From: Microcystis aeruginosa NIES-843
GTDB taxonomy: Bacteria > Cyanobacteriota > Cyanobacteriia > Cyanobacteriales > Microcystaceae
Length of the DNA stretch: 32,000 nt
Direction: 5' to 3'
Assembly (NCBI RefSeq): GCF_000010625.1
Contig: NC_010296.1
Location: 2,250,001-2,282,000 of the forward strand
The stretch's first letter is position 1; each line of letters opens with the position of its first letter. The notes below the pieces were generated by a model. That model searched no databases and had not been told where the DNA came from. It saw nothing but the letters and a program-made list of their open reading frames with translations. Shown piece after piece: positions 550-26,447 of the stretch. A program made the position numbers and the translations under genes.

Positions 550-1152
550 CTACATCCCAACCACCTCAAAGGTAATCGACATAGCCGCCATCTGTCGGGT
601 ATCAATCTGACGCACCTCCGCAAAAGAAGTTGTCCCACTTCCCCGACTTCCCTCATCTAAATCATCCAGAAGACTAAAAATTGCCTCATCTAGTTGGGGT
701 GAATTAATCGGCGTACCTCTAGCACTTTCTCCTCTATCTGCTGCTAAAGTTCTCAACAAATCAATTGCTTTTTTAAGAGGAGTTGTACTAGCAATAACTA
801 AAACTTCAGCCAACCCTAGATCACCGACAACTTTAAAAAACCGATAATGATCCCCTCTATCAACATCAGGAATATTAATAGTTTCTTGAGGAGCAAGTGG
901 AGGTAAATCTTCATTTCCCTGGGATGGAGAAAGAACCATTAAACCACCATCTACACTAACAAGTAATACACAGATATAAAGGGGAAAAGATTCATTATTT
1001 TGAACAATGAGTCGAATTAATGTTCCTAGTTTAATTTTTTGAGCATTGGTAGTTAATCCCCTCACTCCTCTGGTTTGACTGATGGGGGTTATTGTCGCAC
1101 CTCGTACAGTAAAAGATTCTGCTACTAATTGACTACCATCTACCGTTTCCAT
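550..1152 (-). CDS. hypothetical protein, DUF4384-like
   Basis: 200-aa ORF. An in-frame TAG lies 14 codons upstream of the ATG, so it is not an extension of the caspase gene. The pattern KIKLGTLIRLIVQNN..PLYICVLLVSVDGGLMVLSP...INIP...GLAEVLVIASTTPL matches my memory of the DUF4384 consensus, a domain often fused to or found next to bacterial caspases. Confidence 0.5.
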   Translation of the reverse strand: METVDGSQLVAESFTVRGATITPISQTRGVRGLTTNAQKIKLGTLIRLIVQNNESFPLYICVLLVSVDGGLMVLSPSQGNEDLPPLAPQETINIPDVDRGDHYRFFKVVGDLGLAEVLVIASTTPLKKAIDLLRTLAADRGESARGTPINSPQLDEAIFSLLDDLDEGSRGSGTTSFAEVRQIDTRQMAAMSITFEVVGM

Positions 1153-1372: not shown

Positions 1373-3016
1373 CTACTTAAGGGTTAACTTGACTAATCTT
1401 GCTGCTAATAATGATTTTAACTTAGGGCGTAATCGCTCAACGGCATCTGTTACTTTTTCCTCGGCAATTCCAGACGAATCGGGAATCAAATCCAATGCAG
1501 GAGAAAATAAAGCAATGCTGCCGACTTCTGGCAATTTTTTAACTTTTAATTGCTGTAATTGCTGATGATAAATGGGGGAAATTCGCCCTAGAATATAGTG
1601 AAAGTTGGTTTGCTCTAAAGATACCACTTCAATGCGTTTAATCGCTTCTAAAGCTTGTTTAGCTTGCTGTAAAGAAGCATCTAAACCAATTCGGAGAGTT
1701 AAATTACCGGGAATTGCCCGCGATCGCTCTTGAAGTAGAGTTCCGGAAGCAATATTATCTCTTGTCCGCATCAGTTTCCCCTTAGCTGTCAACTCTTGAC
1801 GGGACTCTATCTGAACTTGACCTCGTTCTTTTCCTTCCCCATCCACTAAAGTTAAAATTGCCCCCCGACCGAATGCTGCTAAGGTACGCGGATCGATCCC
1901 TCCCAAAAACAGATCCACCCGATTTCCCTGCACTTGAGTGACCACAGCTTCAGCAGGGATTTTCTGATCTGGTTTGAGAAAATAAACCGCTTGCTGGCTG
2001 TTGTTACTTCCCTCCCTAGTATTAAATTCCGGTTGCTGTAATAAACCAGCCGTCGGGAAATATTCCCGTAAAATGCGATCGGTAGTAGCCGTCGCACTTA
2101 TCATTACTTGACTAACTGAATCGCCTCCGGTTTGCTGCCAGAGATAGCGAGTCAAGGTATATGTAAAGATACCGGCAGCCGTATCGCCAAAGGAAGCATC
2201 GATCGCCGCTTGGTCATTTCTAGCAGCCGCGAGCATTATGCCTTTGGGAACGCCTTTTTTTCGCTCTGTGGCCAAGTCTGAAGCGGTCAAGTTGAGTCTG
2301 GACATCAGTTGTTTTTGATATTCCTGTTCCTGGGGACTTGCTAACAGTTGGATGTTAGAGTTTTCAGTCCGGTTTAACTCCTTTAACTCCCGATTTCCAG
2401 GGCGAGATCGCACTGTTAAGATGCCTTTTCTTGCCCCTCCAGAGTGACAACTATCCAGAATAAAAGTGACATTTTCTGTATTAATTGCTTGCATTAACAA
2501 CCACAAAGTATGACCTGTAATATCATTAACTTTTCCTCCTTTATTGGGATAACCTGGAGGCAGAATGCTATCAACAGGAACAATCGTGCTAACTTGCCCA
2601 TCTTGAAAAATTTGATCGGGATCAAAAACTTGAGAACCATGACCAGAAAAGTGAAAAACTACCACATCACCGGGTTGCGCCCATTGAATTAAATGCTCTT
2701 CAAACGCTTGTAGGATATTCTCACGAGTTGCTTCATGATCAGTTAAAAGCAAGATTTGATCGGACTGAAATCCAAAACGGTGAATGAGTAATTCCTGTTG
2801 TAGTTTGACATCATTGACTGCGCCTTCAAGGGCTATCCATCTAGTATCGGGGTAATTATTAACACCCACTAATAATGCCCGTTTACGAGGTGTATTCTCT
2901 GCCAGTACGCTACGATAAAGAATGGCTCGCTGTTTCAATTCCAACTGGCTCAATCCTAAAGTTGCTAATAAAGAACCAGTCAGGGATAGTAATTGCCTAC
3001 GCTTAATTCTAGTCAT
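1373..3016 (-). CDS. caspase-family peptidase C14 (orthocaspase/metacaspase-like) with a twin-arginine signal peptide
   Basis: The His-Cys dyad motifs VVFHFSGHGSQ and FILDSCHSGG are present. The N-terminus MTRIKRRQLLSLTGSLLATLGLS has a Tat-type RRxLL motif followed by a hydrophobic region. 547 aa. Confidence 0.85.
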   Translation of the reverse strand: MTRIKRRQLLSLTGSLLATLGLSQLELKQRAILYRSVLAENTPRKRALLVGVNNYPDTRWIALEGAVNDVKLQQELLIHRFGFQSDQILLLTDHEATRENILQAFEEHLIQWAQPGDVVVFHFSGHGSQVFDPDQIFQDGQVSTIVPVDSILPPGYPNKGGKVNDITGHTLWLLMQAINTENVTFILDSCHSGGARKGILTVRSRPGNRELKELNRTENSNIQLLASPQEQEYQKQLMSRLNLTASDLATERKKGVPKGIMLAAARNDQAAIDASFGDTAAGIFTYTLTRYLWQQTGGDSVSQVMISATATTDRILREYFPTAGLLQQPEFNTREGSNNSQQAVYFLKPDQKIPAEAVVTQVQGNRVDLFLGGIDPRTLAAFGRGAILTLVDGEGKERGQVQIESRQELTAKGKLMRTRDNIASGTLLQERSRAIPGNLTLRIGLDASLQQAKQALEAIKRIEVVSLEQTNFHYILGRISPIYHQQLQQLKVKKLPEVGSIALFSPALDLIPDSSGIAEEKVTDAVERLRPKLKSLLAARLVKLTLK

Positions 3017-9065: not shown

Positions 9066-10660
9066 GGGACTTCCAAAAAATAAACTATTCATGCTCAAGA
9101 ATAATAATCATTCTCGGAGTGTAGGAGGTAGGGGTCGATGGTTGCCTCCTCCTTCCAATTTTGTAGTAGAATTAATCCTGTACATTATTAATCAAGTTTT
9201 TCTTTGTAAGTGTATATGGAATTAACTGATTCCCTCAAGAAATTGCTCAGTGAAACTGCACTTCAATTAAAAGGTGCAGCTAAAAGAAGATTCATGGCCC
9301 AAACAGTCTTAGAATTAGGCTATGGGGGACAAACCCTTGCTGCACAGGAGTTAGGCTGGAATCGAACTACTATTCGTAAAGGAATTAAAGAACTAAAAAG
9401 AGGTATTATTTGTGTTGATAATCATTCAGCTAAGGGGCGGAAAAAAGCAGAAGAACATTTACCTTTTCTATTGGAAAACATCAAAAGTTTAGTGGATTCT
9501 CAAAGCCAAACTGACCCAAGTTTTAAAAGCCAAAGGCTTTATGTGAGACTGAGTGCGGCCGAAGTCCGAAAGCAATTAATCTCTAAATATGGGTACAGTG
9601 ATGAGGATTTACCGAGCGAGGAAACTATTCGGGTTAAATTAAATAACTTAGGTTATCGTCTGAAAAGAGTCGCTAAAGTTTTACCTCAAAAAAAATTCCA
9701 GAAACCGAGGCAATCTTTGAGGAATTAGCTAACATTAATCGGGAAGCGGATGAAGACCCTACGATGTTACGTCTTAGTTTGGATGCCAAAGCCCGTGTTA
9801 ATATTGGACTATTTGATCGAGGAGGTAAGAATAGAATAACTGTCGAAACAAACGATCATGATTTTAATCCGAAAACAACCCTAACCCCTTACGGAATATT
9901 TATTCCAGAATTTGATGAGTTGTTTTTGTATTTCACTGCCTCCACAGTCACCAGTGACTTTATTGTTGATATATTAGAAGATTTCTGGGAGTCGGAAAAA
10001 TCTCGTTTTGAGAAAATTAAAACTTTGATAATTAATCAAGATAATGGACCAGAAAATAATTCGAGACGAACTCAGTTCATGAAACGTATAGTTGAGTTTT
10101 CCCAAAAATATCAAGTTAATATACGTTTAGCTTACTATCCCCCTTACCATAGTAAATATAATCCTATTGAACGAACCTGGGCTGTGTTAGAAAACCCTTG
10201 GAATGGGAGTATTTTAGATGAAATCGAAACGGCTTTGAAATTCGCCCAAACTATGACTTGGAAAGGAAAACACCCGATTGTTAAGTTGATTACTGAAACT
10301 TATGAAAAAGGAGTAAAGCTTACTAAAAAAGCCATGGAAAAAATCGAAGAAAAAATCGAACGTCTCACAGAATCAACGAATCAAGACTTTCCCGATTTGG
10401 GACAATGGTTTATTGATATCTATTATGATAAGACCTAGTTTGTAGTTAACTAAGATGGTTAGCTAAAAACTGTCTTTGATTCTTTAACTTGTCCTTGTTA
10501 TACTCGAAAAAGCTCGGAAGTATAAGAGTTTGTGCTGCCTATTTTTTCGGAAAAATAGGTTGTAATGGGAGACTCTTTGTTTTCCTAGACAAAAATAATT
10601 ACTTTTTCAAAAAAACACTTTTCTATTTTTTTGTTGGGTATTTTATTCTCTGGAAGTCCC
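9066..10660 (+). mobile_element. ISAzo13-like insertion sequence nested inside the IS630 transposase gene
   Basis: The TIRs are GGGACTTCCAAAAAATAAACTATTC and GGGACTTCCAGAGAATAAAATACCC (reverse complement of the right end). A 3-bp TAA duplication sits at 9063-9065 and 10661-10663. Removing the element plus one TAA restores the IS630 reading frame (KKIAALGI-TIPITLVLDNARYQ). Confidence 0.85.
9210..10438 (+). CDS. ISAzo13-family (Rhodopirellula-type DDE) transposase in two frames joined by a -1 shift at an A8 run
   Basis: ORF 9210-9728 (frame 0) and ORF 9764-10438 (frame 2) carry the family's LSLDAKARVNIG and YYPPYHSKYNPIERTW motifs. Reading ...PQKK then slipping -1 in AAAAAAAA (9688-9695) gives the continuous sequence IPETEAIFEELANINREADEDPTMLRLSLDAK. 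Confidence 0.7.
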
Positions 10661-10983
10661 TAACTATTCCCATCACTCTAGTATTAGATAATGCCCGCTA
10701 TCAAAAATGTAAAATTGTTGAAGAATTGGCTCTTTCTTTGTCAATAGAGCTACTCTATTTGCCGTCTTATTCGCCTAATCTAAATTTAATTGAAAGGCTG
10801 TGGAAATTTGTCAAAAAGAAATGTTTGTATGGTAAATATTATGAAAACTTTTCCGACTTTTCTTCAGCTATTTATGAATGTCTGAATGATGCCCATCTGA
10901 AACATAAAAAAGAACTGGATTCCTTGCTCACTCTACGATTTCAGAAGTTTAATAAATCTCAGATTATGAACGTCTAAAGTATA

Positions 10984-19934: not shown

Positions 19935-19938
19935 GAGT

Positions 19939-19969
19939 CAGTTATCAGTTATCAGTTATCAGTTATCAG
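19939..19969. repeat. heptamer tandem array CAGTTAT x4
   Basis: Read directly, immediately after the murC stop. It uses the same unit as 16958-17009. Confidence 0.9.
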
Positions 19970-20000
19970 ATTTGAGTTTTTAAGTGAGCAGTATTAAATA

Positions 20001-20357: not shown

Positions 20358-21236
20358 ATGATTAAATCCTCTGTTTCTCTAGCTGAGTTCACTTCCTACC
20401 GGGTGGGGGGAAGAGCGCAATGGTATGCCGAACCAGTTAATCTAGAGGAATTAAGAGAATTGTTCGCTTGGGTGCGATCGCAAGGGTTGCCCTTGACTGT
20501 TTTGGGGGCTGGTTCAAATTTACTAATCAGCGATCGAGGTTTACCCGGACTTGTCCTCAATACTCGCCATCTGCGATCGAGTTGTTTTGATGCCGAAACT
20601 GCTACGATTACAGCAGCGGCGGGGGAACCCCTGCCAAAAATAGCTTGGAGAGCGGCAAAACGGGGCTGGAGGGGCTTAGAATGGGCGGTGGGTATCCCCG
20701 GTACGGTGGGGGGGGCTGTGGTGATGAATGCGGGCGCACATACCTCCTGTGTGGCGGATCGATTAGTGCGGGCGCTGGTATTAAATCCCGATGGTCAGTT
20801 AGAAACTTTAAGCAAAGAAGATTTAAATTATAGTTATCGCAGTTCTTCTCTGCAAGGGGATCAACGTTTAGTTGTCGAAGCCACATTTCAGTTAGAAGCT
20901 ACCGATAATCACGAGGAAATAATGGCAATTACTACCCATAATTTACGCCATCGCAAAAATACCCAACCCTATGATCGTCCTAGTTGTGGTAGTGTTTTCC
21001 GCAATCCTAAACCGCAATTTGCCGGGGCTTTAATTGAGGGAATGGGATTAAAAGGTTATCAAATTGGTGGGGCGCAAGTATCAGAATTACACGCTAATTT
21101 TATCCTGAATATTGGTTCAGCAAAAGCCTCGGATATTCTGCGTTTAATTCGTCATGTGCAGGAACAAGTGTTCGATCGCTGGTCCCTCTGGTTAGAACCA
21201 GAGGTGAAAGTTTTAGGGGAATTTGACGGTATTTAA
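20358..21236 (+). CDS. murB: UDP-N-acetylenolpyruvoylglucosamine reductase
   Basis: The FAD-binding region reads TSYRVGG...LGAGSNLLISD. GIPGTVGGAVVMNAGA, SYRSS and CGSVFRNP are present. 292 aa. Confidence 0.92.
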   Translation: MIKSSVSLAEFTSYRVGGRAQWYAEPVNLEELRELFAWVRSQGLPLTVLGAGSNLLISDRGLPGLVLNTRHLRSSCFDAETATITAAAGEPLPKIAWRAAKRGWRGLEWAVGIPGTVGGAVVMNAGAHTSCVADRLVRALVLNPDGQLETLSKEDLNYSYRSSSLQGDQRLVVEATFQLEATDNHEEIMAITTHNLRHRKNTQPYDRPSCGSVFRNPKPQFAGALIEGMGLKGYQIGGAQVSELHANFILNIGSAKASDILRLIRHVQEQVFDRWSLWLEPEVKVLGEFDGI

Positions 21237-21337
21237 TTATTTTTCTCGATAACGGTTGAACTCAGCCGCGATAGGCTGGAGTGCGACGGCAAATATTTTT
21301 ATAATCCTCTAGCATGGTGCGTTCCCCAAAAATCTAT

Positions 21338-21385
21338 TGGTGGAGCAGTAGAACTTGCATTAGGGAACGCACCCTACAGCGATGG
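21338..21385. repeat. partial copy of the island repeat (GGAGCxGTAG...CATTAGGGAACGCACCCTACAGCGATGG) forming a hairpin with 21317-21327
   Basis: It aligns with the right half of the 84-bp repeats at 22950-23033 and 24173-24256. ggtgcgttccc (21317-21327) is the exact complement of gggaacgcacc (21363-21373). Confidence 0.75.
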
Positions 21386-21422
21386 GGATCGTACTGACAG
21401 TGGGAGCAGTGTAACGGTCTAG

Positions 21423-21968
21423 TTATGCCGTCTTCGCTTGTGAGGTTAACTTAAGCAGTTCATTAAGCTTATTTTTTAAGTTTTGGGATGCCATAAGCGG
21501 ATTGTAAACTTCTCCTGCGTAGGGTTGCCAAACATAACTAGAACTAAAGGGGCGCAATACTGGCAATATTCCTAGCTCTTGTTCGAGTGGTTTTGCTAAA
21601 ACCAGTCCTGGGATAGATAAGTTAGATGATTCTTCGAGAAGCTCGCTGTAAGTTCTAAATTCATCGACTTCAACACCAACCAGTGCATAACGGAATGGGG
21701 GAGCAAATCGTAGGGACTGATATAGTAAGATACCTAACTCTGTCATTGAATATGCACTTTCAGGGCTGTCTATTCCCACTTCGCTAAGATTACTTGGTGA
21801 AACACGACACCACCAATTTTCTTCTATGTCTTGGAATATATCTGTGTGACACTGGCAATGGCGACCAGTTGACAGCAACCATGATACTCCCTCAAAATGC
21901 TGAGCAAATTTATGGGCGTTGCTCTCATCCGAACCACATTCTGCCGATAGACTAAATATCCATGCCAT
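21423..21968 (-). CDS. hypothetical acidic protein, candidate immunity/antitoxin partner of the upstream gene
   Basis: ATG at 21968 is preceded by GGGAGG 8 nt upstream, inside the 3' end of the upstream gene. An alternative GTG at 21998 overlaps that gene's TAG stop. 181 aa, with no family I recognise. Confidence 0.6.
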   Translation of the reverse strand: MAWIFSLSAECGSDESNAHKFAQHFEGVSWLLSTGRHCQCHTDIFQDIEENWWCRVSPSNLSEVGIDSPESAYSMTELGILLYQSLRFAPPFRYALVGVEVDEFRTYSELLEESSNLSIPGLVLAKPLEQELGILPVLRPFSSSYVWQPYAGEVYNPLMASQNLKNKLNELLKLTSQAKTA

Positions 21969-21997
21969 TTTGATAGCCTCCCATTGTGTGTATGCCA

Positions 21998-22444
21998 CTA
22001 ATCAACCTTTTCCCAATATTTTTGGGTGTTTGCCAATGCTGCCTCGTACTTTTCTAGAGCCATTGTAACTCTTGGCATGATGCTAACGTGAGTCGGGCTA
22101 TCTTGGACAGCCTGTAAATCCCCTGTGATATGGCTATCGTCAATTTGCCATAAAGGGTCTTTGCCAGTTCCACCAAAACTGGCAGGTTTGCGAAATGCTG
22201 GTAAACCTTCAATGGATAGGGCAACAGACATTCCCTTTGTGTCCCTAATGGCAACCGTTACAAGATCGCCATGCAACTTACGCTGTGGCTCTGGTAACAA
22301 ATAGCTTTGTTCATCTAGGCAACCTACTGGCATTTGCTGAATGTTTATATCGATATTAGGTCTAACCCCTAATAATCTGGCACTACGACCAATTTTGGGT
22401 CTGTCGTTTTGCTCTGCCATGCCACGATAGTAGAGTTTCGCCAT
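21998..22444 (-). CDS. hypothetical protein, candidate Tse2-like (ADP-ribosyltransferase-fold) toxin
   Basis: 148 aa. LYYRGM lies near the N-terminus and KGMSVA is central. The C-terminal GDLQAVQDSPTHVSIMPRVTMALEKYEAALANTQKYWEKV resembles the Tse2 toxin family as I remember it. This was not searched. Confidence 0.5.
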   Translation of the reverse strand: MAKLYYRGMAEQNDRPKIGRSARLLGVRPNIDINIQQMPVGCLDEQSYLLPEPQRKLHGDLVTVAIRDTKGMSVALSIEGLPAFRKPASFGGTGKDPLWQIDDSHITGDLQAVQDSPTHVSIMPRVTMALEKYEAALANTQKYWEKVD

Positions 22445-22473
22445 CACCCACTACTTGTATTTTACCTTTAGCT

Positions 22474-22806
22474 TCATTGTACCTGAAGCACCAACATAAA
22501 CTCAATTGGGACACCATCAACGTCTGAAGATAGACCAACACCAGCTTTCTGAGACATTGTAATCTCTATTTCATCAACACCATTTTCTTTTCCTGCTCGA
22601 ATAATGTCGATCGCTACTTTTCTTTGTTCTGCAATCTCTTTTTCGTTAGCACCTGATGTAAGAAGGGAAATACCGTCCAAAACAAGTGCTACTGGAAGCG
22701 CCAAAGGCACCATTGCAAGCCAACTATTCTGCGACAAGAAGGTAAGCGCTTTAAGCCGTTTTTCTGGCGTTGTGATGTCAAACTCGTTGGATTCACTCAT
22801 ACTCAT
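22474..22806 (-). CDS. hypothetical small protein with one predicted transmembrane helix
   Basis: 110 aa and first gene of the trio. It has a hydrophobic stretch WLAMVPLALPVALVLDGISLL followed by a soluble tail. No family recognised. Confidence 0.45.
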   Translation of the reverse strand: MSMSESNEFDITTPEKRLKALTFLSQNSWLAMVPLALPVALVLDGISLLTSGANEKEIAEQRKVAIDIIRAGKENGVDEIEITMSQKAGVGLSSDVDGVPIEFMLVLQVQ

Positions 22807-22949
22807 TGGCTGGGTTCTATATAGCTAAGCTAAACGGCTTTTACTTCGGATCACTGATATAGACTCCAAAAGGGTTATAGCTATTGGATCATGCAGGTTA
22901 AATGCCGTTTAGCTTATCGATTAACGAAGTGTTGGAATACAAACACAGA

Positions 22950-23033
22950 ATATCACGCCCAAAAGCGTGTTAGCCAGATTAGCCTACTGCTAGTGGAGCG
23001 GTAGGAGCCACATTAGGGAACGCACCCTACAGC
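22950..23033. repeat. 84-bp island repeat, copy 2
   Basis: atatcacgcccaaaagcgtgttagccagattagcctactgctagtggagcggtaggagccacattagggaacgcaccctacagc matches 24173-24256 at 81 of 84 positions. Confidence 0.9.
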
Positions 23034-23197
23034 TAACGTTGCCCATCACCCGCCGCAGATAACCTTGAACTCTAACCGATAACCTTTCGTCGGTCGGTGT
23101 GCATTGGGGTTGTTAGACCGCGCTGCTACGGCAATGCATTCTTATTAAGAGTTAGAATTGCTGTAAAAACTAACCCTTCTAATTCTAGAATCGTCTA

Positions 23198-24013
23198 ATG
23201 GATATTCATTACATTAATCAAGGAAAGCGTGGAAAAAAAGGTCTTTGCAATATTTGTAAACAATCAGCTTCTCTAAGCTGGGATCACGTCCCACCAAAGG
23301 GAGGTATTGATTTGAAGCCTGTTGAGCAGATCACGATTTTACAACGTTTGGCTGGCAACCCTGAAGAACAGAAACCTCGTATTTCACAGAATGGTGTGAA
23401 GTATCGAACCCTTTGCAAACACTGTAATGAACGCTTGGGGCATCGCTACGACCCAGTTCTTAATAGCTTTGCTCTTGGAGTAGGCAGGATTCTTAAATCA
23501 ATTGTGGAAGTTCCACCAATGATTCATTACAAGACGCAACCAGCAATATTGATTAGAGCTATTCTTGGTCATTTAGTTGCAGCGAAGGGAGTTATAGACC
23601 ATAATGTTGTTGATCAGAAAATACGCGAATTTCTGTTTGATGATCAAGCTCAGATCCCTGAAGAAATTAAAATTTTTTACTGGATTTATCCATAGGAAGA
23701 AATTGTGGTTGTTCGTGATGTCATTATGCCTGCGGTCAGAGGAAACTTCAGTGAATTTAGTGAACTTGGAACCTTTAGCGGCATCCTTAAATATTTTCCA
23801 GTAGCTTACGTGGTTTGCAATTTAGAACAATATGAAGGGCTCGACGAATTAACAACCTATCGTGATCTCAAGCTAGAAGAGACTGTTGAGATTCCAATTC
23901 GCTTAACTGACACAAAACATTCTGCATGGCCAGAGATGACTGATGAGGGAAACTTTATGATAGGCGGATTGAATCTAAACAGTTCTGTTCACGCTCGTCC
24001 AAAAAAAGCATGA
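23198..24013 (+). pseudogene. HNH-like nuclease-motif protein interrupted by a single in-frame TAG (23693-23695)
   Basis: ORFs 23198-23695 and 23705-24013 are in the same frame, giving 271 codons if read through (...IFYWIYP*EEIVVVRDV...). The N-terminal CNICK...SWDHVPPKGG...CKHCNERLG follows a CxxC...DH...CxxCN HNH-type arrangement. Confidence 0.6.
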
Positions 24014-24172
24014 CTTCCCCACAAACAACTTTTGCATACTGTCTCAACCGAGAATTGGCGGTCTAACTACATAATATACGGAAAATTTCCGTATAACACT
24101 CCTGAAAGTAATGATATGGGTCAACTTTCGGCATATCACCCCATTTAGGCGCGATCTCCAGAACTTTTCCGT

Positions 24173-24256
24173 ATATCACGCCCAAAAGCGTGTTAGCCAG
24201 ATTAGCCTACGGCTAGTGGAGCGGTAGGAGCCACATTAGGGAACGCACCCCACGGC
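24173..24256. repeat. 84-bp island repeat, copy 3
   Basis: Direct repeat of 22950-23033 with 3 mismatches. Like copy 1, it extends as gcgatgg. Confidence 0.9.
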
Positions 24257-24341
24257 GATGGCTACCACACCAATTTATATACTAGACGGATTTTTTCCAT
24301 ACAACACCCCAAATACAGATTTTCTGGCTCTTCGTTACTTG

Positions 24342-24614
24342 TTATGGTTCGATAGGGTGGCATAAATAAACTAAATCCTTATCTGGCAAGAGATTTAATT
24401 GATTAGTTCGCTCTAGATCAAAAACAATTGACAAAAATCGCCAAACGTTTTTCTCTATAAGGGTTCCGTCCCTTATAACCCCCGTAGATTGCATAACACA
24501 AACCGAAGAACCCATTTTCGTCGCCGTGCCTAGAATTTTATTGTCTAGTACAGCATCGCTACCATAGCACGATCGATTTAACTTGACTGGGAATGGATAA
24601 AGGCAAATAATCAA
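24342..24614 (-). CDS. hypothetical 90-aa ORF (weak)
   Basis: It has a TTG start, no recognisable motif and no obvious ribosome-binding site. It lies in the island between repeat copy 3 and the ABC operon and may be a gene fragment. Confidence 0.25.
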   Translation of the reverse strand: MIICLYPFPVKLNRSCYGSDAVLDNKILGTATKMGSSVCVMQSTGVIRDGTLIEKNVWRFLSIVFDLERTNQLNLLPDKDLVYLCHPIEP

Positions 24615-24713
24615 TTAATCGATCGAGATCAAGACTCAATGTCTGATAACTTGTTATTGGTGGGGTAGGGAATCACCTAAGTCACCCTGTTGAATTATTG
24701 ATTGTCATTAAAA

Positions 24714-26447
24714 ATGTTTAAGCGATCGCTTTTCTTGCCCCTGTTAATTTTATCCCTTAGTTGTACGCTGCTTTTTAGTGCTTGTCATCAACAAACAGCT
24801 AATAATCCCCCAGCAACGACCAATAGTAACACAGAAACTTTAAAACTTTTATATTGGCAAGCACCGACGATTTTAAATCCCCATCTCTCCACGGGATTTA
24901 AAGACTCAGAAGCGAGTCGCATTACCTTAGAACCTTTGGCTAGTTTCGATGAAAAAGGGGAATTAGTTCCTTTTTTAGCGGCAGAAATTCCTACTATTGA
25001 AAATGGGGGAGTTGCCCGGGATGGTAAATCGGTGACATGGAAGCTAAAAAAAGATATTAAATGGTCAGATGGTACTCCTTTTACTGCCAAAGATGTCATC
25101 GCTACCTATAATTTTATTACCAATCCGAAAACTGGTTCTACTAGCGCTGGCAATTATGAAATAGTTAAAACTGTGGAAGCGATCGATCCCCATACAGTTA
25201 AAATAACTTTTAAGCAAGTTAATCCCGCTTGGTCATTAGTTTTTGTGGGAACAGAAGGGATGATTTTACCCGCTCATCTCTATGAAAAGTATAGCAATGA
25301 AACGGCACGTCAAGCCCCTGCTAATTTATTACCGGTGGGAACGGGTCCCTATAAAGTGGTAGAATTTAAACCGGGAGATACGGCGGTTTATGAACCAAAT
25401 TCTTTCTTTCGAGAAGCGGATAAATTAGGTTTTCAAAGAATAGAATTAAAAGGAGGAGGTGATGCAACTTCGGCGGCAAGAGCGGTTTTACAGACACAGG
25501 AGGCGGATTATGCCTATAATTTGCAAGTAGAGGCAAGGGTTTTAAGTGATTTAGAAAAAGTGGGTCGGGGTCAGTTAATATCTAGTTTCGGTTCTTTGAT
25601 TGAACGAGTTTTATTTAATTTGAGCGATCCTAATCAAGCTACTCCTGAAGGTGAGAGGTCTAGTATTAAGTTTCCCCATCCTTTTTTGAGTGATGTGAAA
25701 GTAAGAGAAGCTTTGTCGTTAGCCGTTGATAGAGATACTATTGCCACGCAACTTTATGGTATTACTGGGAAAACAACTCCTAATTTTATTGTGATGCCAT
25801 CAGAATATAATTCGCCCAATACTCGCTATGAATTTAATCTAGAAAAGGCTAAGAAATTACTAGATGATGCGGGATGGAAAGATAGTAATGGTGATGGTAC
25901 TAGGGATAAAAATGGGGTAGAAATGAAATTAGTTTTTCAAACCACTGTCAATCCTCTTCGTCAGAAAACCCAAGAAATTATCAAACAAAGTTTACAAGCG
26001 ATCGGGGTAGGAGTAGAATTAAAAACTATTGATGCCAGTATTTTCTTTTCCAGCGATCCTGCTAACGATGACACGGTAGAAAAGTTTTATGCTGACCTAC
26101 AAATGTACACTACTGGTAATAATAGTCCCGATCCGAAAGCCTATTTTAAAACCTTTACCTGTAGTGAAATTCCCCAAAAAGCTGATGGTTGGGCTGGGGA
26201 TAATTATGCTCGTTATTGTAATCCTGAATACGATAAATTATGGCAAGCTTTTAGTCAAGAATTAAACCCAGAAAAACGTCGAGAAATAGTGATTAAAATG
26301 AATGATATGTTAATTAATGATTTTGTGATTATTCCCCTAGTTCATCGTGCCGATGTGGTGGCAATTAGCAATAGTTTGTCAGGGTTTGAATTAACTCCCT
26401 GGGATAGAAATACTTGGAAGATCAAAGACTGGAAGCGTAGTAAATAA
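24714..26447 (+). CDS. ABC transporter substrate-binding lipoprotein, family 5 (peptide/nickel, DppA/OppA-like)
   Basis: MFKRSLFLPLLILSLSCTLLFSAC is a lipoprotein signal with a lipobox. Family-5 features include LLYWQAPTILNPH, WSDGTPFTAKDV and GTGPYKVVEFKPGD. I prefer the ATG at 24714 to the TTG at 24702. Confidence 0.85.
   Translation: MFKRSLFLPLLILSLSCTLLFSACHQQTANNPPATTNSNTETLKLLYWQAPTILNPHLSTGFKDSEASRITLEPLASFDEKGELVPFLAAEIPTIENGGVARDGKSVTWKLKKDIKWSDGTPFTAKDVIATYNFITNPKTGSTSAGNYEIVKTVEAIDPHTVKITFKQVNPAWSLVFVGTEGMILPAHLYEKYSNETARQAPANLLPVGTGPYKVVEFKPGDTAVYEPNSFFREADKLGFQRIELKGGGDATSAARAVLQTQEADYAYNLQVEARVLSDLEKVGRGQLISSFGSLIERVLFNLSDPNQATPEGERSSIKFPHPFLSDVKVREALSLAVDRDTIATQLYGITGKTTPNFIVMPSEYNSPNTRYEFNLEKAKKLLDDAGWKDSNGDGTRDKNGVEMKLVFQTTVNPLRQKTQEIIKQSLQAIGVGVELKTIDASIFFSSDPANDDTVEKFYADLQMYTTGNNSPDPKAYFKTFTCSEIPQKADGWAGDNYARYCNPEYDKLWQAFSQELNPEKRREIVIKMNDMLINDFVIIPLVHRADVVAISNSLSGFELTPWDRNTWKIKDWKRSK

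Follow-up and report, generated by a model that had tools for sequence, protein, structure and literature searches.

Two adjacent minus-strand genes of Microcystis aeruginosa NIES-843, located in a 32,000-nucleotide stretch of contig NC_010296.1 (the whole stretch is called the window here), probably form a self-contained bicistronic toxin-immunity cassette that resembles a toxin-antitoxin (TA) module. The first encodes a 148-amino-acid (aa) protein which, on its profile matches, is a full-length Tse2-family domain and a putative toxin; the second encodes a 181-aa acidic partner, the putative cognate immunity protein or antitoxin. Tse2 is an effector of the H1 type VI secretion system (H1-T6SS) of Pseudomonas aeruginosa, where it is paired with the immunity protein Tsi2, and was among the earliest T6SS effectors characterised (PMC12133291). 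An initial reading of the window from its letters and open reading frames (ORFs) only (the sequence-only reading) had grouped these two genes with a third, a 110-aa gene lying upstream (gene 1), as a possible tripartite or membrane-gated system; the functional unit is the two genes for toxin and partner, and the position of gene 1 is taken up below.

A Tse2-family domain and its acidic partner

The resemblance of the middle protein to Tse2, noted in the sequence-only reading, is borne out by profile comparison. The 148-aa protein matches PF18648 (ADPRTs_Tse2) with E=1.8e-15 and 58.2 bits (cut-off 26.6), the match spanning residues 10-141 of the protein and positions 4-134 of the 137 positions of the profile; Tse2 itself obtains 57.7 bits with this model, level with the window protein. 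Since a Pfam family name alone is not proof of homology to the prototype, the family was also compared directly with Tse2 (PA2702), whose query sequence was checked and is identical to chain 5ako_C. A family profile of 47 sequences (A4) aligned by hhalign to the Tse2 sequence of 5AKO with a probability of 86.9%, E=4.2e-6 and 34% identity over 82 columns; the link to Tse2 needed hhalign against this verified sequence, because neither the single protein nor profiles of 16 and 47 sequences reached it in hidden Markov model (HMM) searches against the PDB sequences. The alignment pairs the GGMSV motif of the family with GGTSV of Tse2 (T79, S80), and the family motif QDS..TH..I.P..M...W with the Tse2 segment that holds H122. 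The predicted pocket residues of the window toxin are R7, S73 and H119, found in the motif pairs LYYRGM/LYRAV (R7), GMSV/GTSV (M72/S73) and THVSIMP/THYTIMP (H119) of window protein and Tse2; the match of R7 with R14 was made by inspection and lies outside the block aligned by hhalign. Across the 47 diverse relatives in profile A4, S73 and H119 are invariant and R7 is nearly so (at least 90%), and the position of T79 is occupied by M throughout this family. In Tse2, R14/T79/S80/H122 make up the predicted catalytic pocket (bioRxiv 10.64898/2026.06.15.732508), and T79A/S80A is a published non-toxic allele (PMC3325213). ADP-ribosyltransferase activity was reported for Tse2 according to a 2018 review; a 2025 review considers its mechanism still unknown (PMC12133291). 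Growth-arresting toxicity and NAD-dependent enzymatic activity of the 148-aa protein are putative.

A wide search for relatives of the Tse2 domain returned 524 clusters at 50% identity. In many cases the domain forms the very C-terminal end of an Rhs/YD-repeat, PT-HINT or SpvB protein, or comes after eCIS_core (DUF4157), a domain that takes its name from extracellular contractile injection systems (eCIS) and carried, for example, by the relatives P0300 and P0340; since its relatives form the tips of such carriers, the Tse2 domain has a polymorphic-toxin pedigree. The 148-aa protein consists of the toxin domain only, with neither eCIS_core nor any other carrier domain in a Pfam scan, and no signal peptide was found in it (maximum Kyte-Doolittle value 0.84).

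The three minus-strand ORFs (Table 1) were confirmed in the ORF listing and by reading the sequence, and the interval between genes 1 and 2, estimated earlier at about 26-29 nt, measures 29 nt. The partner gene is closely spaced with the toxin gene without overlapping it. Its GGGAGG Shine-Dalgarno site does lie 8 nt ahead of the ATG at 21968, as the sequence-only reading had it, but follows the TAG stop of the toxin gene within the 29-nt spacer and is not located inside the end of that gene; likewise, the GTG at 21998 exists and overlaps this TAG, but was rejected as an alternative start, since every partner homolog begins with MAWIFSLSAECG, which places the start at the ATG (21968) and leaves the GTG unused. 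Translational coupling through overlap of the two genes is thus not supported. Promoter and terminator scans produced matches at chance level only, an Rfam scan of 21000-24800 gave no match, and neither expression data nor literature were found under the pair's locus tags. Within the toxin gene, an antisense ORF is conserved in 31 loci; it was set aside because the strong conservation of the sense gene would produce it as a side effect.

The partner is acidic as originally described, with an isoelectric point (pI) of 4.78 and a net charge of -10; its family has a length of 175-181 aa, a median pI of 4.51 across 120 homologs, and the invariant blocks NWWCRV, MTELGI, FRYALVGVEVDEFRTYSEL and GE.YNPL. 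A homolog of 224 aa in Planktothrix sp. PCC 11201 (P0127) contains an internal insertion of about 49 residues, in which the NWWCRV...MTELGI region seems to be duplicated in tandem. The partner found no match in Pfam, NCBIfam, PADLOC, PHROGs or PDB sequences, and no homology to Tsi2 emerged from the Pfam, NCBIfam and PDB sequence searches. Partner homologs also follow extended Tse2 toxins: one (57% identity, E=2e-73) is encoded behind a 403-aa eCIS_core-Tse2 fusion (locus L225), and another (45% identity, E=7e-35) behind a 245-aa, N-terminally extended Tse2 protein with which its gene overlaps by 4 nt (L227). The partner family therefore tracks its toxin subclade in any delivery context. In one Microcystis locus (L134, positions 344-1541) a deletion has removed gene 1 and all but the final ~33 nt of the toxin ORF, and an intact partner gene with its Shine-Dalgarno site (98.9% identity) stands directly behind a HigB/HigA cassette. 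No toxin without partner occurs among 80 loci; this asymmetry is based on a single orphan partner, and the loci were ascertained through the toxin. Two further candidate orphan partners (L177 and L183) were cut by contig ends, and L134 is the only true orphan. Together, the homologs behind extended toxins and the orphan fit a role of the partner as cognate immunity protein, which would bind the toxin directly and neutralise it.

More distant Tse2-like toxins are accompanied by other small acidic proteins: two tandem toxin-partner units in locus L102 (2277-3762), with partners of pI 4.66 each, and, in L226, a 79-aa protein of pI 4.85 encoded after an Rhs-tip Tse2-like toxin. Such exchange among unrelated small acidic partners is the swapped-immunity pattern typical of polymorphic toxins, and it too speaks for an immunity or antitoxin role of the partner. 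The L102 contig is metagenomic with 72% GC; its two acidic proteins have a C-terminal tail in common and bear no relation to the partner in cyanobacteria.

The pairing was followed through a survey of 185,579 species, each represented by one genome, which found 146 toxin relatives; locus counts refer to the best 80 of these, all of them cyanobacterial. In 80/80 loci the gene immediately downstream of the toxin encodes the partner, and the same holds for L104. Where both starts could be placed automatically (65 loci), 64 show a gap of 19-34 nt with a GGAG-type site, and in the remaining one the genes overlap by 1 nt. The arrangement of a toxin followed by an acidic partner, proposed from the window alone, is in this way supported by strict co-occurrence. 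Homolog searches yielded 800 close relatives of the toxin and 612 of the partner; among the matches listed all belong to cyanobacteria, in many orders, at 70-99% identity. Median dN/dS, the ratio of nonsynonymous (dN) to synonymous (dS) substitution rates, is 0.12 for the toxin and 0.13 for the partner, which indicates purifying selection on both. Clustering of the flanking ORFs within 6 kb on either side of the 80 loci found no other conserved neighbour of the pair. A Pfam scan of the 105 nearest neighbours gave mostly housekeeping families, with PIN as the commonest single family (6/105); Hcp, VgrG, PAAR, Rhs and eCIS do not occur within the top 25, by frequency, of the 185 neighbour families matched, a result that covers neighbourhoods and not whole genomes. 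No secretion-system family is found among the conserved neighbours, consistent with the lack of a T6SS link assumed in the sequence-only reading.

Origin of the pair and the repeat-bounded hotspot beside murB

The pair is widespread but patchy in cyanobacteria, and chromosomal. A distance tree of the concatenated pair groups the copies mostly by taxonomy, with Microcystis nested in a Pseudanabaena/Tumidithrix group; several genomes hold two divergent copies of the pair. The dS values between the window and the Pseudanabaena/Tumidithrix copies are 0.27-0.62, and most between-order comparisons are near saturation. The nested position and the low dS suggest that Microcystis acquired the pair horizontally from a Pseudanabaena/Tumidithrix-like lineage. 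The case for transfer rests on phylogeny and dS, because in base composition the island does not stand out as foreign (~42-44% GC; window, 42.9%).

In the window, the pair occupies a repeat-bounded, strain-variable island between murB and an ABC transporter operon (ABC substrate-binding gene), as the sequence-only reading had proposed. A locus in the metagenome-assembled genome (MAG) SFCA01000263 (L001) is 99% identical to the window, with the same murB...ABC-transporter synteny, and a look-up of genomes with identical MurB retrieved eight contexts at this site. One has the same three genes as the window together with an intact HNH-like gene of 272 aa (L082); in two, the pair is accompanied by a HigA-type helix-turn-helix (HTH) gene, to which a HigB-like remnant may be added, and by a DUF433 gene (L081, L083); in L085 a PIN/VapBC module takes the place of the pair; and in four the pair is absent (L084, L086-L088). 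Across strains with identical MurB, this position thus holds the pair, or VapBC, HigBA or DUF433 modules, or nothing of the kind, and the murB site is a strain-variable hotspot.

The boundaries are marked by a repeat (Table 1). The 17-mer CATTAGGGAACGCACCC occurs three times in the window against zero copies expected, and the repeat as a whole has a conserved core of ~48 nt, GGAGCCACATTAGGGAACGCACCC, and a long form of ~85 nt; the core shared by the three copies has no other occurrence in the 32 kb. The hairpin region of the short copy folds as DNA with z = -3.4, and repeat folding in general is weak (z -0.9 to -3.4). In every variant of the hotspot the repeat core stands between cassettes in one orientation, and it is absent from 78 non-Microcystis loci. 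A metagenome scan located at least 120 further repeat stretches; 16 of the 80 loci fetched (L105-L184) are at the murB hotspot. In 46/46 loci with several copies, all repeat copies point the same way, and their median spacing is 1190 nt; of the inter-repeat ORFs, 84/93 have a common orientation. The repeat is placed closer to the 3' end of the cassettes, with median distances of 78 nt from the last stop to the repeat vs 249 nt from the repeat to the first start. The inter-repeat cassettes are mainly DUF3368, DUF5615/DUF433, PIN, HigB/HTH_3, DUF2442/DUF4160, PemK, BrnT and EcoRI-type restriction-modification (R-M) genes; the Tse2 pair in Microcystis therefore holds the same kind of slot as classical addiction modules. 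No integrase was found among the scanned window ORFs or in the gene tables of the murB hotspot, and no published description of repeat-delimited cassette arrays in Microcystis was found.

Table 1. Coordinates of the toxin-partner pair, gene 1 and the neighbouring cassette elements in the window, and of distant gene 1 relatives in other loci.
Feature	Coordinates	Strand	Description
Gene 1	22474..22806	-	110 aa, pI 4.43; small acidic protein, lineage-specific accessory
Gene 2, Tse2-family toxin gene	21998..22444	-	148 aa; start ATG 22444
Spacer between toxin and partner genes	21969..21997	-	29 nt; Shine-Dalgarno GGGAGG at 21982-21977
Gene 3, partner gene (putative cognate immunity/antitoxin)	21423..21968	-	181 aa, pI 4.78
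Boundary repeat, short copy	21340..21385	+	Core pairs with 21316-21329; 14-bp hairpin ~40 nt 3' of the partner stop
Boundary repeat, long copy	22950..23033	+	~84 nt; between toxin cassette and HNH-like cassette
HNH/EndoVII-like gene, in its own repeat-bounded cassette	23198..24013	+	Two ORFs, 23198-23695 and 23705-24013 (165 + 102 aa)
Boundary repeat, long copy	24173..24256	+	96% identical to 22950-23033; distal end of HNH-like cassette
Distant gene 1 family loci	L095:4001-4665, L097:4001-5146, L099:592-1437		TA-rich islands; unrelated cassettes without Tse2 gene

The HNH/EndoVII-like gene next to the pair matches HNH_5 below the cut-off (24.9 bits) and phrog_21495 with E=2e-17, and is intact in other strains at 272-273 aa; its cassette runs in the opposite orientation to the toxin genes and is separate from the toxin module.

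It is a tentative and rather speculative extension of these observations that the pair is one captured cassette of an undescribed Microcystis array system, in which recombination, by homologous exchange or through some recombinase, would take place at the ~48-85-nt repeats, and that the partner represents a new immunity family for both stand-alone and injection-system-borne Tse2 toxins. Under such an arrangement the repeats may shuffle TA, R-M and toxin-immunity cassettes between strains, and even bring them in from other cyanobacteria, for instance Pseudanabaena.

Elsewhere in the window, a tandem heptamer run (TCAGTTA repeated) occupies 19938-19971 in the murC-murB intergenic region. A caspase-domain protein of the metacaspase/orthocaspase type (Peptidase_C14, E=1e-23) adjoins a DUF4384 protein, at 550-1152 (-) and 1373-3016 (-), and three consecutive ORFs with DDE transposase fragments (ISAZ013-type, DDE_3) at 9210-10977 (+) probably represent a decayed or frameshifted insertion sequence.

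Weighing a probable toxin-immunity cassette against other readings

As a toxin-immunity cassette, the pair would work as follows. The 148-aa protein would be a cytoplasmic Tse2-family toxin with an ADP-ribosyltransferase-like fold, comparable to the prototype, which arrests growth via a broadly conserved target; the partner, translated from its own Shine-Dalgarno site 29 nt downstream, would bind the toxin and block the R7/S73/H119 pocket. A cell that keeps the toxin would have to keep the partner as well, and the pair may persist as a unit because of this proposed addiction. The cassette would have entered Microcystis horizontally, to occupy one slot in a repeat-delimited array of TA and R-M genes beside murB, with gene 1 as an optional, lineage-specific add-on that is damaged in the window.

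Several observations weigh against this reading. No DNA-binding domain of the HTH, ribbon-helix-helix (RHH) or AbrB type was found in 20 partner homologs, unlike typical type II antitoxins. For a TA or immunity pair, the level of conservation is out of the ordinary (70-90% identity across orders, dN/dS ~0.12), and within clades the genes are passed on mostly by vertical descent; a cellular function acquired by domestication would be compatible with this too. Most neighbours outside Microcystis are housekeeping genes. The correlation of pairwise dN values between toxin and partner (r=0.82), in itself an argument for the pairing, is confounded by shared phylogeny. A tblastn search with the toxin found no match on plasmids or phages, and PADLOC has no model that matches any of the three proteins; NCBIfam and PHROGs likewise gave no meaningful match for any of them. 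Finally, the AlphaFold2 model of the toxin is of moderate quality (predicted local distance difference test, pLDDT, 68; predicted template modelling score, pTM, 0.67; 1/5 models converged), and a Foldseek search of the PDB with it placed 5ako_C only at rank 24, with E=3.5 and a template modelling (TM) score of 0.27; this entry had the highest probability (0.25) and the highest identity (26%) in a list with nothing significant overall. The partner model (pLDDT 64, mixed alpha/beta) has weak ferredoxin-like Foldseek matches only, and nothing significant against the PDB and a viral library. As a caveat, these null results should not be taken as evidence of new folds, because both models are only moderate.

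As the main alternative, the pair could consist of a secreted antibacterial effector and its immunity protein, with the toxin exported against competitors as eCIS cargo, in vesicles or by lysis, and the partner protecting the producer and its kin. This explanation is conceivable but rather unlikely. The prototype Tse2/Tsi2 is such a pair, toxin-then-immunity is the gene order of polymorphic toxins, relatives of the domain are fused to Rhs, PT-HINT and eCIS_core carriers, and the same partner family stands behind the eCIS_core-Tse2 fusion; yet the 148-aa protein is all toxin domain, without signal peptide, eCIS_core or other carrier, secretion families are missing among the conserved or frequent neighbours in the 80 neighbourhoods surveyed, selection is purifying and does not show the diversifying pattern usual for competition toxins, and in Microcystis the pair sits among classical TA cassettes.

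In an abortive-infection or anti-phage module, a phage would deplete or displace the partner, and the freed toxin would halt the infected cell. The arrays with R-M and TA cassettes in a strain-variable Microcystis hotspot are compatible with such a function, and one study portrays Microcystis as exceptionally rich in defence genes (PMC5780444). Against this stand the missing PADLOC match for all three proteins and the mostly housekeeping neighbours outside Microcystis; neither a phage-sensing domain nor a phage-encoded homolog was found. An anti-phage module is on balance unlikely, and would be one role that the TA mechanism described above might play, not a separate mechanism.

The high conservation noted above, with its low dN/dS (0.12-0.13) and the long invariant blocks of the partner, the clustering of most copies by taxonomy and the housekeeping neighbours in many genomes could also point to a domesticated pair, an ADP-ribosyltransferase-like enzyme with a physiological role whose partner acts as regulator or substrate adaptor, not as antidote. 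It is very improbable that this accounts for the pair, given its patchy distribution (146 relatives in 185,579 species genomes), its presence and absence among Microcystis strains with identical MurB, its likely horizontal transfer into Microcystis, the orphan partner left after toxin loss, and the occurrence of the same partner family behind carrier-fused toxins.

Gene 1 has 38 homologs only and accompanies the pair in 5/80 loci (Microcystis and a few Pseudanabaena). It consists of a conserved C-terminal domain of ~75 aa and one variable hydrophobic segment, residues 30-48 in the window protein (Kyte-Doolittle 2.07; homologs 1.15-1.9). The hydrophobic segment cited earlier for a membrane protein is thus present, but its membrane nature is unproven, because the stretch is the least conserved part of the family and weaker in homologs. 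In the window, and shared with L082, a single-T deletion near 22496-22500 of the minus strand (TTTATTG>TTTATG) causes a frameshift that replaces the conserved C-terminus IVGASGTMKLKVKYK (the C-terminal strand) with MLVLQVQ; in intact alleles (NIES-298, L002) the stop is a TAG located 6 nt ahead of the toxin ATG. Distant gene 1 relatives precede a HicB-like antitoxin, a pair of 100-aa and PIN-like 150-aa proteins, and a 159-aa protein of no known family (Table 1), which suggests a modular leader gene for different cassettes. Considering its occurrence in 5/80 loci, its frameshift here, and the unrelated cassettes preceded by its distant relatives, gene 1 is a modular, optional neighbour. The tripartite reading, in which a 110-aa membrane protein, toxin and partner form one unit as a membrane-gated toxin or a toxin-antitoxin-chaperone system, can count on a gene 1 that in Microcystis and some Pseudanabaena is always directly upstream, with its intact stop 3-6 nt from the toxin start and a highly conserved C-terminal domain, but its rarity, its frameshift in the window and L082, its poorly conserved hydrophobic segment and the distant relatives ahead of cassettes without any Tse2 gene make this reading highly improbable.

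Known systems and implications

The proposed toxin-immunity cassette of the window has its closest counterpart in Tse2-Tsi2 of Pseudomonas aeruginosa (PDB 5AKO). Both toxins share the PF18648 domain at equal model scores, the GG(M/T)SV and TH..I.P..M motifs and the R/S/H pocket residues; both systems are bicistrons with the toxin gene ahead of that for an acidic partner, which in the cyanobacterial pair would have the neutralising role, and the binding surface of Tsi2 is acidic (PMC3325213). In contrast to Tse2-Tsi2, no T6SS or Hcp linkage was found at the cyanobacterial loci, where the pair is a patchy cassette, located among TA cassettes in Microcystis. Tsi2 is much smaller and dimeric, whereas the cyanobacterial partner is an unrelated protein of 175-181 aa with a predicted alpha/beta fold, and the cyanobacterial toxin differs from Tse2 by a clade-specific insert of ~25 residues between the DI.I and GMSV motifs. 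Polymorphic toxin cassettes, such as Rhs/YD-repeat tips and DUF4157/eCIS_core toxins, have the same Tse2 domain as their C-terminal tip and the same toxin-then-immunity order, and the eCIS_core-Tse2 fusion is followed by a partner of the same family as that of the window; they differ in that the window protein has no carrier or pre-toxin domain, is not located beside Rhs or eCIS genes, and is under purifying selection.

HigBA is a toxin-first type II TA module, and DarTG and ParST have TA toxins of the ADP-ribosyltransferase type. With toxin-first type II modules such as HigBA the pair shares the format of a two-gene, addiction-style cassette that is strain-variable and sometimes present in multiple copies; it is lodged among VapBC, HigBA and MazF cassettes, and an orphan antidote is left after toxin loss. 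The cyanobacterial partner differs in having no recognisable DNA-binding domain, and DarT and ParT show no sequence relation to the window toxin. The Microcystis arrays in turn recall integron arrays, or attC clusters without integrase, in their co-oriented repeats ~1.2 kb apart, their one- or two-gene cassettes in mostly one orientation, the position of the repeat nearer the 3' end of the cassette, and the many TA cassettes; yet integron attC is a long imperfect palindrome, whereas the Microcystis repeat folds weakly, no integrase was found beside the murB array, and the arrays are short and scattered across many genomic sites.

The sequence-only reading had called such a deployment of Tse2 apparently undescribed. 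This holds in part: databases already name cyanobacterial proteins "Tse2 family ADP-ribosyltransferase toxin", but no paper on the pair or its partner family was found, and the literature yielded no description of a stand-alone cyanobacterial pair, of the partner family, or of the link between this partner and eCIS_core-fused toxins.

The stand-alone Tse2 relatives of cyanobacteria, a large and highly conserved clade in which the R/S/H pocket is kept, give comparative leverage on the key residues and surfaces of this toxin family. The partner constitutes a new family of putative inhibitors unrelated to Tsi2, and since its homologs also occur with eCIS_core-fused Tse2 toxins, structural and mechanistic studies could gain a second natural inhibitor from it. 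The pair illustrates how the domain of a secreted toxin can live as a T6SS-independent, TA-like cassette. For the bloom biology of Microcystis, a strain-variable cassette of this kind might play a part in strain incompatibility, in phage defence or in cell death, and repeat-delimited arrays of TA cassettes may explain part of the well-known genome plasticity of this genus.

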